The translations under genes and the position numbers were made by a program. The notes beneath the pieces were generated by a model. That model saw nothing but the letters and a program-made list of their open reading frames with translations, did no database searches and was not told where the DNA came from. From the IMG/VR virus record IMGVR_UViG_3300020434_000055: DNA of 64,000 nucleotides; one strand, given 5' to 3'. This document shows positions 15,867 through 29,437 of the stretch, one piece after another; position 1 is the stretch's first letter; each line of letters starts with the position of its first letter. Source of the stretch: a virus (Duplodnaviria; Caudoviricetes).

Positions 15867-15895
15867 TTGACTTTTGGTGTAGAAAATGTTATATT
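15867..15895 (+). promoter_or_regulatory. Sigma70-type promoter of rpsU
   Basis: TTGACT-17 bp-TATATT with TG extension. Confidence 0.75.
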
Positions 15896-15914: not shown

Positions 15915-16112
15915 ATGGAAGTAGAAGTTCGAAATAATAACGTAGACAAGGCAATGCGTATCCTTAAGAAGAAAATGAAAAAGGAAGGTCTTTTTGATTT
16001 AATGAAGGATAAACAGTATTACCAAAAGCCTAGTTTTAAAAGACGAGAAAAGAAAAAAAGAAGACTCGTGAATATCAAGAAAGCGGAAAAATTAAGAAGT
16101 AATTTCATTTAG
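15915..16112 (+). CDS. rpsU: Ribosomal protein bS21
   Basis: [25 protein letters not shown]...[17 protein letters not shown]. Confidence 0.93.
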
Positions 16113-16119
16113 GAGGTAA

Positions 16120-16389
16120 ATGAAAGCAAAAGAATTACAATGGAGTACATTTTCAGTACCCTATGGATTTTTTAAGAATTATTTTCTATTAATGATATTT
16201 GCTTTATGGTTTTTACCCGGCGTCATGGGTATAAGATTTACAGTTTTAGGATATATTCTAAATTATCTTTGGGCAGACTTTATGTTTTATATGTGGTATA
16301 AAACCAAAATGTCAGCTAAAGAATATTGGGAAGAACAAAAAAGAAAAAGAGATTGGCAAGACAGGGACGACGATGACAACACATTTTGA
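16120..16389 (+). CDS. Membrane protein
   Basis: AGGAGG SD; two hydrophobic segments. Confidence 0.6.
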   Translation: MKAKELQWSTFSVPYGFFKNYFLLMIFALWFLPGVMGIRFTVLGYILNYLWADFMFYMWYKTKMSAKEYWEEQKRKRDWQDRDDDDNTF

Positions 16390-16597
16390 TGACACCGTAT
16401 TAATTGAATGTACCGATAATGGTAAAAAAATGGAAGCCGAAGTTCTTACTTTTAAAGAAGAACAATTTTTAAGTGTATCGATCCAAAGAGCAGTGAAATT
16501 AAATATGGCATGGAATTCTAAAAAAAATGTTTATATTGGTAAAGGTTCCGGTCTCGAATTTATAACAACAGGTCCTAAAAAATTTATAACTAATTAA
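16373..16597 (+). CDS. Conserved small phage protein
   Basis: ECTDNGKKMEAEVL...YIGKGSGLEFITTGP; all-beta look. Confidence 0.6.
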   Translation: MTTHFDDTVLIECTDNGKKMEAEVLTFKEEQFLSVSIQRAVKLNMAWNSKKNVYIGKGSGLEFITTGPKKFITN

Positions 16598-16601
16598 TAT
16601 A

Positions 16602-17651
16602 ATGAAAAACGTTGGAATAATTGGCGTTGGTAAAATTGGTAGAACGATTGCCGCCTTTTTAAATAAAAAACCCGAAATATTTAAAGTTCATTTAGCAGAT
16701 ATAAATCCATGGGATAAAGATGAATCTATTATAAAAATAGATGCGTCTGATATAAACGAGTGTAAAAGATTTATAGGTGGCAAAGATATAATAATTACAT
16801 CTACTACTCATGACGTTAATATTAATATTGCAAAATCGTGTGCTGAATTAGGAGTAGCATATTTTGATTTAACAGAAGATACAGAAGTTTCAGAGTATAT
16901 TAAAAATTTAGATACAAAAACATTTATGATGCCACAATGTGGATTGGCGCCTGGGGCAGTTAATATTATTGCCGCAAATTTAATCAGTCAATTTGAAGAA
17001 CCACATAAAGTTAAAATGAGAGTTGGAGCATTACCTAAATATCCTACCAATGCAATGTCTTATTATCTTACTTGGTCAACTGATGGTTTACTTAATGAAT
17101 ATGTAAATTATTGTGATGTCATTTCCCATTACGATCATATTAAAGCACATCCACTAGATGGTATAGAATCAATTTATATAGATGGAAATAGATATGAAGC
17201 ATTTAACACATCAGGAGGTAGTGCTTCTATGTGTGAAACATATAAAGACAAAGTTAGAACATTATCATATAAAACTATTAGGTATCCAGGACATTGTGAT
17301 AAAATGAAATTTTTATTAGAAGATTTAAATTTAAAACATAACAAACAAAAATTTATAGAATTATTTGATCAAGAAGTTCCTTATACAACTGCAGATGTTG
17401 TAGTAATGCTTGTATCTGTAATTGGTAAAAAAGATGGCAAATTACAAGAAGTTACATATTCAAATAAAATATATGGCGACACAGATTTTAGTGCCATCCA
17501 AAGAGCAACTGCTTCTGGTGTATGTGCTGTCGTTTTAGCATATGCTACAGGAAAACTTACAGGTACAGGATATATCAAACAGGAGAACATACCACATAAA
17601 GATTTTATAACTAATTTATACGGAGAAATATACAATGGCAGAGCTACTTAA
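16602..17651 (+). CDS. Saccharopine dehydrogenase family / lysine 6-dehydrogenase-like
   Basis: GIIGVGKIG Rossmann motif, QCGLAPG, TWSTDGLLNEY, EAFNTSGG, YKTIRYPGH. Confidence 0.88.
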   Translation: MKNVGIIGVGKIGRTIAAFLNKKPEIFKVHLADINPWDKDESIIKIDASDINECKRFIGGKDIIITSTTHDVNINIAKSCAELGVAYFDLTEDTEVSEYIKNLDTKTFMMPQCGLAPGAVNIIAANLISQFEEPHKVKMRVGALPKYPTNAMSYYLTWSTDGLLNEYVNYCDVISHYDHIKAHPLDGIESIYIDGNRYEAFNTSGGSASMCETYKDKVRTLSYKTIRYPGHCDKMKFLLEDLNLKHNKQKFIELFDQEVPYTTADVVVMLVSVIGKKDGKLQEVTYSNKIYGDTDFSAIQRATASGVCAVVLAYATGKLTGTGYIKQENIPHKDFITNLYGEIYNGRAT

Positions 17652-19071
17652 AGAAGGTTATAATTTATTAGTTGAAAAATCTACTGACGCCCAAAAAGGT
17701 TGGCTAAAAGTTCCAGCACCTAAACGTGGAGAATTAATTAGAATATTTGGTAACAAATTAAGAGAACACTTACAAGAACTAGGTAAAGGTGTTACTATGG
17801 AAAGTAAAAAAATTTTAGTTGAAGGAGTTGGAGAAGTCCAAGAAGTAATTGATATGTGTGATTTTGCAGTAGGGTTATCAAGACAACTATATGGATTAAC
17901 AATGCCTTCTGAAAGGCCTGATCACAGATTACAAGAAATGTGGCATCCATTAGGTGTAGTAGGTGTTATTACGGCTTTTAATTTTCCAGTAGCGCCATGG
18001 GGTTGGAATTTTTGTTTAGCAATAGTGTGTGGCGATAGTGTTGTATGGAAACCATCTCCTAAAACAATGAAAATATCATACAGATGTAAAGAATTATTTG
18101 ATGATGCAGTTAAAGATTTTAAAAGCAAATATGTTGAAAGTTTAGGAATAGATGTAAAAAATTTATTATTAATATTAGAAGGAGATAAAGAACAAGCAGA
18201 ATGGATGGCTGATGATCCTAATATAAAATTATTAAGTGCAACAGGATCATGTGAAATGGGTAAATCATTAGCACCTAAGGTTTCTGCAAGAATGGGTAAA
18301 GGTTTATATGAACTAGGTGGCAATAATGCAATGATAGTAACTAATAATGCAAATTTTGAATTAGCCGTAAGAGCAATTATTTTTAGTGCTATTGGTACAA
18401 CCGGTCAAAGATGTACTTCTTTAAGAAGACTTTTTGTACAAAAAAATAGTTACGATTCTATGAAAGGTATGCTACATAGAGCATATTCAGGAATTGACCC
18501 TGGTCATCCATTGGACAACGGTGTTTTATTAGGCCCATTAATTGATGAAAAAGCATTTAAAAAAATGCAATCTGTTTTACATAAATGTCGACAAAAAGGA
18601 TACATGGTTTATGGTGGAGATCCACATGAAGAATGTAATAAATTAAATCCGGATCATCCGTATTACGTTTACCCAGCTATTGTTCATGCTGATTTTCATT
18701 CTGAAATGGTTAAAGAAGAAACATTTGCTCCTATCCTTTATATGTTAAAATATGATAAACTAGAAAATGCAATTAAAATGCAAAATGATGTACCTCAAGG
18801 ATTAAGTTCTTGCATTTTTACAGAAAATTTAAGAGAAGCTGAAACATTTATATCTTCAGTTGGTTCTGATTGCGGAATTGTAAATGTTAATATAGGACCA
18901 TCAGGTGCAGAAATAGGTGGAGCATTTGGTGGAGAAAAAGATACAGGTGGTGGCAGAGAATCTGGATCTGATGCTTGGAAATCTTATATGAGAAGAACTA
19001 CAGTTACAATTAATTATGGTAGAAAATTACCTTTAGCACAAGGTATAACTTTTGCATCTGATAAAAAATAA
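17635..19071 (+). CDS. ALDH7 family aldehyde dehydrogenase (alpha-aminoadipate semialdehyde / P6C dehydrogenase)
   Basis: EGVGEVQEVIDMCDFAVGLSRQLYG, ITAFNFPVA, ELGGNNA, catalytic GQRCT, GGRESGSDAWKSYMRR. Confidence 0.92.
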   Translation: MAELLKEGYNLLVEKSTDAQKGWLKVPAPKRGELIRIFGNKLREHLQELGKGVTMESKKILVEGVGEVQEVIDMCDFAVGLSRQLYGLTMPSERPDHRLQEMWHPLGVVGVITAFNFPVAPWGWNFCLAIVCGDSVVWKPSPKTMKISYRCKELFDDAVKDFKSKYVESLGIDVKNLLLILEGDKEQAEWMADDPNIKLLSATGSCEMGKSLAPKVSARMGKGLYELGGNNAMIVTNNANFELAVRAIIFSAIGTTGQRCTSLRRLFVQKNSYDSMKGMLHRAYSGIDPGHPLDNGVLLGPLIDEKAFKKMQSVLHKCRQKGYMVYGGDPHEECNKLNPDHPYYVYPAIVHADFHSEMVKEETFAPILYMLKYDKLENAIKMQNDVPQGLSSCIFTENLREAETFISSVGSDCGIVNVNIGPSGAEIGGAFGGEKDTGGGRESGSDAWKSYMRRTTVTINYGRKLPLAQGITFASDKK

Positions 19072-19697
19072 TGCCTAAAGGATTTTATAGAGATCAAGAC
19101 ATTTGTTTTGATATTAAAAAACTGCAAAATGCAATTAAAGAAGTAGATTCAAGAGTAGCAAGACAATCCCCATTAGGAAAAAATGACCTTACTGCAATTT
19201 GTTTAACACAAATACCTGAAGATCCAAATTCAATTACAGGCGGTAATGTTAGAGGTCTATATTGGACAAAACCAGATAGCACATATAAAGAAGTAGAAAG
19301 AGAAGCACCTATTAATGAATCACAATATTCAGAATTTGTTAAACTGTTTGAAGATACATATTTTAAAGAAGTATACGATAAATTAACAACCAAATATGAA
19401 TTAGGTAGAGTTAGATTACTTTGGAAAATGCCACGTACAACATTAAGTTGGCATAGAGACCCTGAACCCAGAATACATATTCCTATCATAACAAATTTTG
19501 GTGCTCGTATGTGTATAGGTGAAGTAGTTCATCATATGCCTGCAGATGGATCTGTATGGGTTACTAATAATACAAAATATCATAACGCATTTAACGGTGG
19601 AGAAGAAGATAGAATACATTTAGTTGCTACTGTTTTAAATTGCGATATGAAAATTTTTGATAGTTATCCAAATTCTTCTCTTAATCAAATTTGGTAA
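19071..19697 (+). CDS. Fe(II)/2OG hydroxylase, aspartyl/asparaginyl beta-hydroxylase-like
   Basis: WHRD...RIHIPIITN...HNAFNGGEEDRIHLV (HxD...H facial triad). Confidence 0.8.
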   Translation: MPKGFYRDQDICFDIKKLQNAIKEVDSRVARQSPLGKNDLTAICLTQIPEDPNSITGGNVRGLYWTKPDSTYKEVEREAPINESQYSEFVKLFEDTYFKEVYDKLTTKYELGRVRLLWKMPRTTLSWHRDPEPRIHIPIITNFGARMCIGEVVHHMPADGSVWVTNNTKYHNAFNGGEEDRIHLVATVLNCDMKIFDSYPNSSLNQIW

Positions 19698-19707
19698 TCT
19701 ACTCTAC

Positions 19708-19736
19708 TTGACAATACAACCAATTTCCTTTATTAT
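19708..19736 (+). promoter_or_regulatory. Sigma70-type promoter
   Basis: TTGACA-17 bp-TATTAT. Confidence 0.75.
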
Positions 19737-19781: not shown

Positions 19782-20030
19782 ATGACAATTACTATACAAG
19801 AAAAAGTCCTTAATGCTTTAAACAACGGACAGGCTCTTTCTTCAGCAACGATCAAAAATAGATTTGGTGCTGGAAATCCAGGCTCTGTAATCCAATCTTT
19901 AAGATTTAAAGGATATCCAGTGTTTTTAAACACAAACAGTAAAACTGGTTGTAAAGTTTATAGAACTGGTAAAGCACCACGAAAAGTAGTAGGTGCAGGA
20001 TATAAAGCATTAGCAAAAGGCTTAATATAA
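19782..20030 (+). CDS. Winged-HTH DNA-binding protein (conserved in large myoviruses)
   Basis: EKVLNALNNGQALSSATIKNRFGAGNPGSVIQSLRFKGYPVF...YRTG; AAGGAG SD. Confidence 0.7.
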   Translation: MTITIQEKVLNALNNGQALSSATIKNRFGAGNPGSVIQSLRFKGYPVFLNTNSKTGCKVYRTGKAPRKVVGAGYKALAKGLI

Positions 20031-21207: not shown

Positions 21208-22542
21208 ATGAGAACACAACCACAAGAAGTAATAGCAAAACTAGAAGCAGATAATTCTAGACTTAAAAAAGAAGCAATAGTTTTAGATGCAATGAAAGAA
21301 GGATTGGACGAATTCTTTGAAGGTCTAAAAATGTGTTTAGACAAACTATACACATTTGGAGTTAAACAAGTACCTACTAAAGATGACGTTATATCAGCTC
21401 AAGGCTGTGAATGGAAAGTGTTTAAAAAATTAGCTGAACAACTTTATAATAGAGAACTTACAGGACACGCGGCTCGTGATGCAATTAAACTTGTAATGAG
21501 TTCTGCAACGCCAGAACAATGGAATGGCTTTTATAGAAGAATCTTAATTAAAGATTTAAGATGTGGTGTTACAGAAAAAACTGTAAACAATGTTGCAAAG
21601 AAAAACAAATTTAAACAATATACAATTCCAGTATTCACTTGTCAATTAGCACAAGACTCTGCAAAACACGATAAGAAACTTACTGGTAAGAAAATGTTAG
21701 AAGTTAAATTAGATGGTGCTAGAGTTGTATCAATTGTTTATCCAGATGGCAAAGTTGATATGTTTAGCAGAAATGGAAAAGAGCTAAACAACTTTGGACA
21801 TATTGCAGATGAAATAAGTGAAGTAGTTAAAAATTCTCCACCACCTTATCCTTTAATTTTAGACGGTGAAGTAATGAGTGATAACTTTCAAGACTTAATG
21901 AAACAAATTCATAGAAAAAGTTCTGCAACAGCCAAAGATGCTAAACTGCATTTATTTGATTTTATTCCATTAGCAGATTTCAAAAAAGGCATTTGGAATA
22001 AAAGCCAAAAGGATAGAACAGAAATGGTTAAGGCTTGGTACGAACAACATAAGGCAAGTCTAACAACTGTAGAAGTGTTAGATCATGAAATAGTTGACTT
22101 GGACACAGAAGAAGGGCAAAAGACGTACACAGCGATTAATAAGAGGGCAGTAGACGGGGGATATGAAGGTATCATGATAAAAGACCTAGACGCTCCATAT
22201 GAGTGTAAAAGAACTACGTCTTGGTTAAAATTAAAACCATTTATTGAAGTATCATTGAAAGTAATTGACACAGAAGAAGGTACAGGTAAAAATGTAGGTA
22301 AATTAGGAGCACTTATTGTTGAAGGTACAGATGATGGCAAGTTTATTAAAACGAATGTAGGATCTGGTTTAACTGATGAAAATAGAGAAGAATTTTGGAA
22401 AGCAAAAGGAAAACTTACAGGACAAATAGTAGAAGTTAGAGCAGATGCAATTACACAGAATCAAGATACAAAAAATGAATGGAGTCTTAGATTTCCAAGG
22501 TTCTTAAGATTTAGAGGATTTGATGTCGGAGAAAAAATTTAA
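21208..22542 (+). CDS. lig: ATP-dependent DNA ligase
   Basis: EVKLDGAR (motif I), LDGEV, EGIMIKD, WLKLKP, NVGSG, SLRFPRFLRFR. Confidence 0.96.
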   Translation: MRTQPQEVIAKLEADNSRLKKEAIVLDAMKEGLDEFFEGLKMCLDKLYTFGVKQVPTKDDVISAQGCEWKVFKKLAEQLYNRELTGHAARDAIKLVMSSATPEQWNGFYRRILIKDLRCGVTEKTVNNVAKKNKFKQYTIPVFTCQLAQDSAKHDKKLTGKKMLEVKLDGARVVSIVYPDGKVDMFSRNGKELNNFGHIADEISEVVKNSPPPYPLILDGEVMSDNFQDLMKQIHRKSSATAKDAKLHLFDFIPLADFKKGIWNKSQKDRTEMVKAWYEQHKASLTTVEVLDHEIVDLDTEEGQKTYTAINKRAVDGGYEGIMIKDLDAPYECKRTTSWLKLKPFIEVSLKVIDTEEGTGKNVGKLGALIVEGTDDGKFIKTNVGSGLTDENREEFWKAKGKLTGQIVEVRADAITQNQDTKNEWSLRFPRFLRFRGFDVGEKI

Positions 22543-23197
22543 AGATACTTTAGCTATGGACTTGTGGTTTCCTACAATTGTATGGAACGACAACTTAAAA
22601 CACATCGATAATAAGATGTTAAATAATTATGTCTTAAATCTTAAAGAAAAAGATAAAGGACGAATTGTAACTAATTATGGTGGTTGGCAAAGTAACATGA
22701 TTAAAAGCAAAATTCACGAAGATTTATCACCAAGTGAAAATACTGATATAATAGAAAAATTTATTGAATCATTACAAAATGCAATTAACCAATGTGTTAA
22801 AATGGCAGGGTTAATGGATTTACAAATATGTGACTATTGGTGGAACATAAATTATAAAGGTGATTATAATAAACCACACCATCACAGTGATAGTATTTTA
22901 AGTGGTGTTTATTATATTGATATACCAGAAGACAATATGGGAGATATTCACTTTGAAAGAGAAGACCCAGCACAATATTTTCTTCCTAGATATATGCCTA
23001 CGCGAAATAAATTAACTTCTACTAGAGCTACGTATAAACCTAAAACAGGTGGTTTATTAATTTTTCCTAGTTGGGTTACGCATAGTGTAGATGGTAATAA
23101 AACAGATAAACCTAGAATATCAATGAGTTTTAATACAACTATTGCCCGAACACCTGCTAATGACGAACTAGCAAGAATGAATGGATTTAAAATATGA
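22520..23197 (+). CDS. 2OG-Fe(II) oxygenase (TIGR02466-like)
   Basis: WWNINYKGDYNKPHHH...LSGVYY...LIFPSWVTHSV...RISMSFN. Confidence 0.85.
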   Translation: MMSEKKFKDTLAMDLWFPTIVWNDNLKHIDNKMLNNYVLNLKEKDKGRIVTNYGGWQSNMIKSKIHEDLSPSENTDIIEKFIESLQNAINQCVKMAGLMDLQICDYWWNINYKGDYNKPHHHSDSILSGVYYIDIPEDNMGDIHFEREDPAQYFLPRYMPTRNKLTSTRATYKPKTGGLLIFPSWVTHSVDGNKTDKPRISMSFNTTIARTPANDELARMNGFKI

Positions 23198-29080: not shown

Positions 29081-29437
29081 ATGGCGATATTAACACTTAC
29101 AGACTCGGCAAAGCAAAAAATTAAAGAACTTTGTACAGAAAATAGCAAATATGCTGTGAGATTAGGAATTAAAGGCGGCGGATGTGCTGGTTTTTCCTAT
29201 GATTGGGGATTTGCAAATCAAGACCAAATAGAAACAAATGATGAATTAATTCAAGTAGATGGTGGAAATCTATTAATAGATTCTGGTAGTATAATGTTTC
29301 TACTTGGTTCAGAATTAAGCTACGTAAAAGAAGTATTTGGTTCACAATTTAATATTACAAGTCCTAAAGTAAAATCGTCATGTGGTTGTGGAGAAAGTGT
29401 AACTTTTGATATGGATAAGGTAACTGTAGATGTCTAA
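29081..29437 (+). CDS. iscA: IscA/SufA (HesB) Fe-S cluster carrier
   Basis: LTLTDSAKQKIKE, RLGIKGGGCAGFSY, SPKVKSSCGCGESV. Confidence 0.93.
   Translation: MAILTLTDSAKQKIKELCTENSKYAVRLGIKGGGCAGFSYDWGFANQDQIETNDELIQVDGGNLLIDSGSIMFLLGSELSYVKEVFGSQFNITSPKVKSSCGCGESVTFDMDKVTVDV

Follow-up and report, generated by a model that had tools for sequence, protein, structure and literature searches.

The hydroxylase gene and the gene run that it closes

The window analysed here is the whole 64,000-nucleotide stretch of the Caudoviricetes record IMGVR_UViG_3300020434_000055 from IMG/VR, and its subject is an open reading frame (ORF) for a putative Fe(II)/2-oxoglutarate (2OG) hydroxylase at positions 19071–19697 (+ strand, 208 amino acids). 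It directly follows an ORF at 17635–19071 (+ strand, 478 amino acids) encoding an aldehyde dehydrogenase of the ALDH7 family. Across the junction (...GATAAAAAATAATGCCTAAA..., read as AAATAATGCC), the two genes have one base in common, the A shared by the ALDH7 stop TAA and the hydroxylase start ATG (TAATG), so that both the ORF coordinates and the junction sequence agree with the original prediction for this locus, in which the hydroxylase starts within the ALDH7 stop. Because more than 8000 database proteins match its product, many at about 80% identity, this ORF is a real, conserved gene; one of the matching proteins occurs on 913 contigs.

Only one Pfam domain, PF05118 (Asp_Arg_Hydrox), was found in the protein, at residues 106–188 (34.3 bits for a gathering threshold of 22.6, E = 2.6e-8). 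Searches of PHROGs and NCBIfam returned no family, and the ESM Atlas returned only clusters labelled “Asp/Asn beta-hydroxylase domain”. By sequence, the sole solved relatives in the Protein Data Bank (PDB) are the entries for the caprazamycin beta-hydroxylase Cpz10 (7V4F and others, E = 2.9e-16). Residues H128-R-D130, H136, H171, R181 and H183 of the phage protein align with H115-R-D117, H123, H160, R170 and H172 of Cpz10, which in that enzyme serve as the triad that binds iron, the arginine that binds 2OG and two histidines with a structural role (PMC9814697). The HxD...H facial triad for iron is present (H128, D130, H171), and R181, the counterpart of Cpz10 R170 as the basic residue for the 2OG C5 carboxylate, is invariant in an alignment of 51 diverse homologues reaching down to 27% identity, as are R113, H128, H171 and N175; at D130, R134, H136 and H183, conservation in the same alignment is 90% or higher. 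An AlphaFold (AF2) model built from it (pLDDT 89.5, pTM 0.87) has a double-stranded beta-helix (cupin) fold, with Foldseek matches to Cpz10, P4H, AspH and AlkB. The best PDB match is Cpz10 (7v4f, E = 3.5e-13, template-modelling (TM) score 0.85 on the target), followed by L-proline cis-4-hydroxylase with bound pipecolate (E = 1.2e-6) and then by AspH- and AlkB-type structures near 1e-4. Judged from alignments and model, the product appears to be an intact, soluble, single-domain Fe(II)/2OG beta-hydroxylase of a Cpz10-like branch of PF05118, and the predicted AspH-like dioxygenase is borne out by the PF05118 match and the intact set of aligned catalytic residues.

Cpz10 and the phage protein are both small, single-domain cupins of the AspH family and share the HRD...H triad, the 2OG-binding arginine and the histidine of the RxH motif; the HRDxnH motif, C-terminal R-x-H, size of about 180–200 residues and stand-alone architecture typical of Cpz10 are all found in the phage hydroxylase. 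Cpz10 carries out beta-hydroxylation at the 2-aminobutanoyl moiety of an intermediate in caprazamycin synthesis; it also oxidises free L-methionine, giving the sulfoxide (PMC9814697). The two proteins are only 26–27% identical, however, and Cpz10 belongs to a Streptomyces nucleoside-antibiotic cluster and acts on a glycyluridine conjugate, whereas the phage gene lies among a putative bS21 gene, a lysine-dehydrogenase-like gene, ALDH7 and replication genes. The second match by fold, L-proline cis-4-hydroxylase (4p7x in the PDB), acts on a free amino acid and also on L-pipecolate, and it is this kind of likeness that lay behind the earlier idea of a pipecolate hydroxylase. The relationship holds for the fold but not for the sequence, as the proline enzyme is 286 residues long and 14% identical, with a TM score of 0.43 on the target, and was not matched in the PDB sequence search; membership of the pipecolate hydroxylases was therefore rejected. 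The nearest solved relatives, Cpz10 first and the proline enzyme second by fold, both act on small amino-acid-like molecules. Human AspH (PDB 5apa, 6yyu) shares the Pfam family and the double-stranded beta-helix core, but it is membrane-anchored, carries a tetratricopeptide repeat (TPR) domain, hydroxylates epidermal growth factor (EGF) domains and is only 12–16% identical (Foldseek E about 1e-4). Both the TPR docking domain and the membrane anchor are absent from the phage protein, whose AspH matches cover the oxygenase core only, and an assignment to AspH proper, the EGF-domain hydroxylase, was set aside. Longer homologues fused to D5 primase, topoisomerase IV, QueC or GNAT domains mostly resemble chimeras produced by gene calling and were left out of the evidence, although the GNAT fusion (P0257) gives a weak hint of a small-molecule amine.

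The hydroxylase is the last of six + strand ORFs between 15915 and 19697 that overlap or are separated by a few bases at most. The run begins with a putative bS21-like gene (15915–16112), kept upstream of the cassette in relatives, and continues with two small overlapping ORFs (16120–16597, individually 16120–16389 and 16373–16597; 30–91% identity in relatives), a gene for a 349-residue lysine-6-dehydrogenase-like protein (LysDH) with a saccharopine dehydrogenase fold (16602–17651; PF16653, 5e-20; PF03435, 1e-7) and the ALDH7 gene, a putative piperideine-6-carboxylate (P6C; aminoadipate-semialdehyde) dehydrogenase (PF00171, 1.6e-102). This run is flanked by the region's two top-scoring promoter-like sites on the + strand: the second best, a probable unit start, lies before the bS21 gene at 15867–15895 (TTGACT-17-TATATT with TG, 10/12), and the best lies at 19708–19736 (TTGACA-17-TATTAT, 11/12), beginning 11 bases past the hydroxylase stop and serving the next gene (19782–20030). 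No + strand terminator-like site was found between the two. From the tight packing, the flanking promoter-like sites and this lack of a terminator-like site, the transcription unit probably comprises all six genes rather than the three originally proposed, and the hydroxylase is probably co-transcribed, and co-expressed, with the two genes before it. The predicted end of the operon ahead of the next promoter fits the site at 19708–19736; both sites are consensus matches only, and since the 30 promoter-like matches overall are not above the 26.2 expected by chance, we infer the limits of the operon.

The two genes upstream can be labelled a lysine pair with reasonable support from sequence comparison. 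The closest solved relative of the LysDH-like protein is Pyrococcus PH1688 (PDB 3abi, E = 2e-21), which we take to be a lysine 6-dehydrogenase. The ALDH7 protein scores 686.8 bits on the P6C-dehydrogenase model NF050084, whose cut-off is 730, matches PDB 6dbb (E = 2.8e-164), the P6C dehydrogenase Pcd (6rtr, 4.9e-148) and human ALDH7A1 (6e-130), and aligns over its full length with bacterial Pcd and ALDH7A1, family C-terminal signature included. Some bacteria oxidise lysine directly with a lysine dehydrogenase (reviewed in PMC7253579), and the bacterial pair of lysine dehydrogenase and aminoadipate-semialdehyde dehydrogenase is the counterpart of the two phage genes. The cellular pair nonetheless differs from the phage cassette in its reversed gene order and in having no hydroxylase next to it, as on a cellular contig with ALDH7 and then LysDH at 55% and 51% identity to the phage genes; a 208-residue ORF near that pair (L208) was checked and is unrelated. 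A literature search found no paper describing a phage saccharopine or lysine dehydrogenase as a metabolic gene.

The window ALDH7 is only 71–73% identical to its counterparts in the close relatives L005–L010, versus 95–97% for LysDH and 90–96% for the hydroxylase, and the 17-nucleotide overlap between LysDH and ALDH7 in the window is a gap of about 200 nucleotides in these relatives. The best IMG/VR match to the window ALDH7 is 73% identical, with no closer one found in that database. It looks as though ALDH7 was replaced by a divergent allele while the gene order was kept.

Distribution of the cassette and of the hydroxylase family

The order LysDH–ALDH7–hydroxylase recurs in many IMG/VR contigs, with identities of 75–96% for the hydroxylase, 62–97% for LysDH and 60–73% for ALDH7. 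On the hydroxylase tree, the linked copies form a single clade (24 unique sequences, SH-aLRT 96), nested among stand-alone phage copies (L145, L151/152/154/155, L035, L160), and because all of them fall in this one clade, a single joining event or rearrangement would be enough to explain every linked hydroxylase. Within it, the adjacency of ALDH7 and hydroxylase is kept in 24/24 unique sequences and across at least four flanking contexts, namely the main bS21 block, a locus where a DNA ligase gene precedes the pair and a TctA transporter gene follows it (L024), one where it lies between a CHASE2 cyclase and a methyltransferase (L039), and one without LysDH in which SufS, L7/L12 and SufB precede ALDH7–hydroxylase and a porin follows (L034/L045). 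The CHASE2-domain adenylate/guanylate cyclase (L039:365–2392, on a 124-kb viral contig) lies directly upstream of LysDH–ALDH7–hydroxylase, and the SufS-like cysteine desulfurase, ribosomal protein L7/L12 and SufB stand in a row at L034:1219–4387 and L045:589–3760.

Unlinked sister copies are 72–81% identical to the window hydroxylase, on a par with many linked ones. Fixed differences between linked and unlinked sisters are confined to residue 4 and the C-terminal tail at 192–193, and comparison with the unlinked sister orthologues found no clade-specific substitution in the catalytic core of the linked enzymes. Two phage genomes carry both genes apart. On contig 3300031646_000503, ALDH7 is next to PutA and the hydroxylase is about 18 kb off, while in the complete 328-kb phage G1137 (L145), the hydroxylase is at about 98 kb and an ALDH7 (60% identity) at 286 kb, with no LysDH nearby, in a ClpS...Fe-S assembly gene–ALDH7–clpP context that recurs in L036. 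At L043:3989–8253, ALDH7 is immediately followed by a full-length PutA of 951 residues, combining proline dehydrogenase and pyrroline-5-carboxylate dehydrogenase. Conservation of the three-gene synteny, proposed earlier as a check on a shared pathway, thus holds throughout one clade, down to about 60% ALDH7 identity, but does not extend to sister phages, to Pelagibacter phage Mosig or to SAR11, where the hydroxylase occurs without the lysine genes.

The best 80 one-per-species genome matches are nearly all from Pelagibacteraceae (60–66% identity, complete chromosomes included), and in 79/80 the 5 kb around the gene hold no ALDH7 and LysDH. Of the sampled Pelagibacterales genomes, 136/151 have the family (135/150 when one unpublished genome, G084, is excluded), many with two copies, while an ALDH7-like match at E ≤ 1e-100 was found in 0/151 of them and no LysDH match in the 3 SAR11 genomes searched. 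In 62–65 of about 66 unique loci, the main SAR11 copy lies in one block, with rnc, recO and, on the opposite strand, hemB, followed by hydroxylase–rpiB–glyA–nrdR, so that glyA, the gene for serine hydroxymethyltransferase (SHMT), is two genes downstream of the hydroxylase.

Among phages, a search of 50,697 records at E ≤ 1e-3 matched only Mosig (QOI69081, gp118; 53.5% identical over 88% of the protein), whose gene adjoins pstS and has no lysine genes beside it; many IMG/VR contigs likewise carry the hydroxylase without them. Mosig gp118 and the Asp/Asn beta-hydroxylase of the pelagimyophages, marine myophages of SAR11, share the Pfam family of the window protein, and the latter has been reported as core to all pelagimyophages alongside peptide deformylase and S21, with no function given (Zaragoza-Solas et al. 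2020, PMC7029224). The phage clade of the window is sister to the SAR11 copies and not nested in them. Representatives at 50% identity on contigs of 0.7–1.5 kb (P0138, P0126, P0151) offer no gene context. By these distributions, the hydroxylase family is older and far wider than the lysine genes at this locus, and its role in SAR11, whatever its nature, proceeds without ALDH7. The window gene is a phage copy of a family that nearly all SAR11 and a good many large marine myophages possess; an AspH-family 2OG oxygenase as a phage metabolic gene is of a known kind, and the arrangement seen here is new. The fallback offered in the original prediction, in which the gene may simply count among the numerous unrelated 2OG oxygenases that marine phages carry, is too weak a description for a specific family that is shared with the probable host and has gene partners indicative of amino-acid metabolism.

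Full-length orthologues are rare in Alphaproteobacteria other than SAR11 (about 8/400 genomes sampled in the class, 22/121 in one order), and a phylum-wide scan found them in only 3/401 genomes. In 23/29 of these non-SAR11 alphaproteobacterial loci, a count drawn mainly from one order and three other lineages, a gene of the threonine-aldolase family PF01212 lies immediately downstream on the same strand, within a few bases (L226, L230, L232, L234–L240, L244–L254). The partner proteins are about 345–400 residues long, the loci have a G+C content of 41–68%, and a LysR-type regulator is nearby in 6/16 loci examined, mostly divergent and upstream. Such two-gene operons have the look of inducible small-molecule catabolic operons. 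Neither the window nor any of the phage records covered by the search has a PF01212 gene directly downstream of the hydroxylase, and a literature search returned neither a description of a hydroxylase–threonine aldolase pair nor a paper joining the aldolase with this family.

Possible roles of the phage hydroxylase

The gene partners suggest that a free amino acid is beta-hydroxylated and that an aldol reaction then cleaves the product to glycine and an aldehyde. We favour, at about even chances, the reading that the window gene encodes an amino-acid beta-hydroxylase of the host type whose place behind the lysine pair is incidental. The phage enzyme would act like its cellular relatives, adding a hydroxyl group at the beta-carbon of a free alpha-amino acid or of a metabolite that resembles one, and a pyridoxal phosphate (PLP)-dependent aldolase would then split the beta-hydroxy product into glycine and an aldehyde; this would be a threonine-aldolase-like enzyme in the other Alphaproteobacteria and SHMT in SAR11. 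A single rearrangement in one phage clade would have set the gene directly behind LysDH–ALDH7, as the last of a unit led by bS21. No result obtained here backs a dependence of the hydroxylase on the lysine pair.

The proposed logic is shared with steps 1–3 of carnitine biosynthesis, in which an Fe/2OG beta-hydroxylase, a glycine-releasing PLP aldolase and an aldehyde dehydrogenase act on a lysine derivative: trimethyllysine (TML) dioxygenase, hydroxytrimethyllysine (HTML) aldolase, a role that threonine aldolase and SHMT fill interchangeably, and trimethylaminobutyraldehyde (TMABA) dehydrogenase (PMC11016064). TML dioxygenase is absent from the fold matches of the phage protein, and the likeness is therefore one of pathway logic and not of descent. 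No SHMT match was found in five phage records and the window, so the aldolase is not phage-encoded there. By analogy with this pathway, coupling of the hydroxylase to ALDH7, with the aldehyde dehydrogenase acting next, is conceivable.

Several observations weigh against the favoured reading. The aldolase adjacency is limited to sister-group Alphaproteobacteria at about 40–45% identity, separated from the SAR11 and phage group by a long branch; because the aldolase-linked genes are sister to the SAR11-plus-phage group, any transfer of function to the phage crosses that branch. In SAR11, glyA is two genes off within a housekeeping block, a proximity that may be meaningless. Further gene contexts in SAR11 and phages lead in different directions (katG directly before the second SAR11 paralogue; hemB, hemC and hemE; IscA-like genes; SufBS), and the ALDH7–hydroxylase adjacency was never lost within its clade despite differing flanks, as a functional link would also produce. 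To our knowledge, there is no biochemistry for any member of this hydroxylase subfamily.

The ALDH7–hydroxylase adjacency also speaks for a sharpened form of the original proposal, with LysDH, ALDH7 and the hydroxylase as one lysine pathway: LysDH and ALDH7 would make 2-aminoadipate, and the hydroxylase would beta-hydroxylate it, or P6C or pipecolate. The product could be a hydroxylated end product or could be cleaved by host SHMT or threonine aldolase to glycine and succinate semialdehyde; alternatively, the hydroxylase would act first and ALDH7 would oxidise the aldehyde freed by the aldolase. The genes are overlapped or tightly packed with no notable internal promoter or terminator, their order was kept although the window ALDH7 (71–73%) is far more divergent from close relatives than the genes beside it (90–97%), the sequence of hydroxylase, PLP aldolase and aldehyde dehydrogenase is established on a lysine derivative (PMC11016064), and, on paper, beta-hydroxylation of 2-aminoadipate and aldol cleavage yield glycine and succinate semialdehyde. 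Probable co-transcription and synteny thus stand in favour of the three genes making a hydroxylated lysine derivative. Against it, a single origin suffices for the linkage, the linked hydroxylases show no pocket changes and no sign of adaptation to a lysine-derived substrate, G1137 and contig 3300031646_000503 carry the two genes unlinked, SAR11 has the hydroxylase with no ALDH7 match (0/151) and no LysDH match (3 genomes), and the cellular ALDH7–LysDH pair (55% and 51% identity) has no hydroxylase beside it. On balance we consider a shared lysine pathway unlikely. Its most specific form, a so far undescribed lysine-to-glycine route that combines the phage cassette with SHMT or threonine aldolase of the host, is in our estimate quite improbable; lysine would pass through aminoadipate semialdehyde/P6C (LysDH), 2-aminoadipate (ALDH7) and 3-hydroxy-2-aminoadipate (hydroxylase) before aldol cleavage to glycine and succinate semialdehyde.

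Two further explanations take their cue from other neighbours, and we assign each a very low probability. A protein hydroxylase acting on a ribosomal protein, translation factor or phage protein, and so grouped with bS21 and peptide deformylase, would suit a Pfam family named after AspH, a unit shared with the putative bS21 gene in the window and the listing with peptide deformylase and S21 among core pelagimyophage proteins (PMC7029224). The protein lacks a TPR or other substrate-docking domain, however, its similarity to AspH is weak (12–16% identity, E about 1e-4) compared with that to Cpz10 (E = 3.5e-13), and its cellular orthologues lie in LysR-flanked two-gene operons with a PLP aldolase, as is typical of small-molecule catabolism. 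A role in haem, iron cofactors or oxidative stress, for instance metabolite repair or modification under peroxide, with the lysine genes as incidental island neighbours, draws on a longer list of contexts: at 61 of about 66 loci, the SAR11 type-1 copy has hemB as its divergent neighbour; the second SAR11 paralogue follows katG (catalase-peroxidase) on the same strand at a distance of 4–23 nucleotides (L267–L271, from G065, G089, G072, G010 and G046); the 5-aminolevulinate (ALA) dehydratase gene hemB is upstream of the hydroxylase in phage loci L197 (4117–4968), L200, L201 and L203; L163:1786–5552 reads hemO–pcyX–hemE–hemC–hydroxylase, encoding haem oxygenase, bilin reductase, uroporphyrinogen decarboxylase and porphobilinogen deaminase; in most of 17 Mosig-like loci, one of the next two genes downstream is IscA-like; SufS and SufB are present in L034/L045; and Cpz10 turns methionine to its sulfoxide. 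These contexts nonetheless share no consistent single partner, phage metabolic genes cluster in islands in any case, and none of these neighbours flanks the orthologues of other Alphaproteobacteria.

Phage, host and significance

Contigs with the hydroxylase gene reach 235–328 kb, and the nearest relatives of a neighbouring AAA protein come from jumbo Pseudomonas phages and T4-like phages; the phage belongs to a large myophage lineage. From sequence relationships, we infer SAR11 as its probable host, although one linked copy lies on a SAR324 single-cell contig. This 15.6-kb contig (L049, AGAU01000055.1) carries an ALDH7–hydroxylase pair of the phage type (73% identity), which groups within the phage clade. 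The pair could be phage DNA in or on the SAR324 cell, which would bear on the host, or contamination.

The hydroxylase represents a very abundant ocean gene family, which about 90% of the sampled SAR11 genomes and many large marine phages carry, and its likeness to Cpz10 together with the aldolase pairing makes its function directly testable. SAR11 relies on external glycine or serine, and a glycine-releasing hydroxylase, if that reading is true, would bear on the glycine supply of SAR11 and its phages; more broadly, the SAR11 and phage family would then catalyse the initial step in a general conversion of amino acids to glycine and an aldehyde. Coupling to the lysine pair, if real, would be a new virus-borne catabolic route, and through the lysine-to-glycine version an infected cell would gain glycine, plus succinate by way of succinate semialdehyde.

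A second, unrelated 2OG-Fe(II) oxygenase (PF13759, phrog_81) is encoded in the window at 22520–23197, overlapping the end of a DNA ligase gene, and is missing from some close relatives (L002–L004). An IscA/HesB-like gene for Fe-S biogenesis at 29087–29398 shares 38% identity with the one found next after the hydroxylase in Mosig-like phages.

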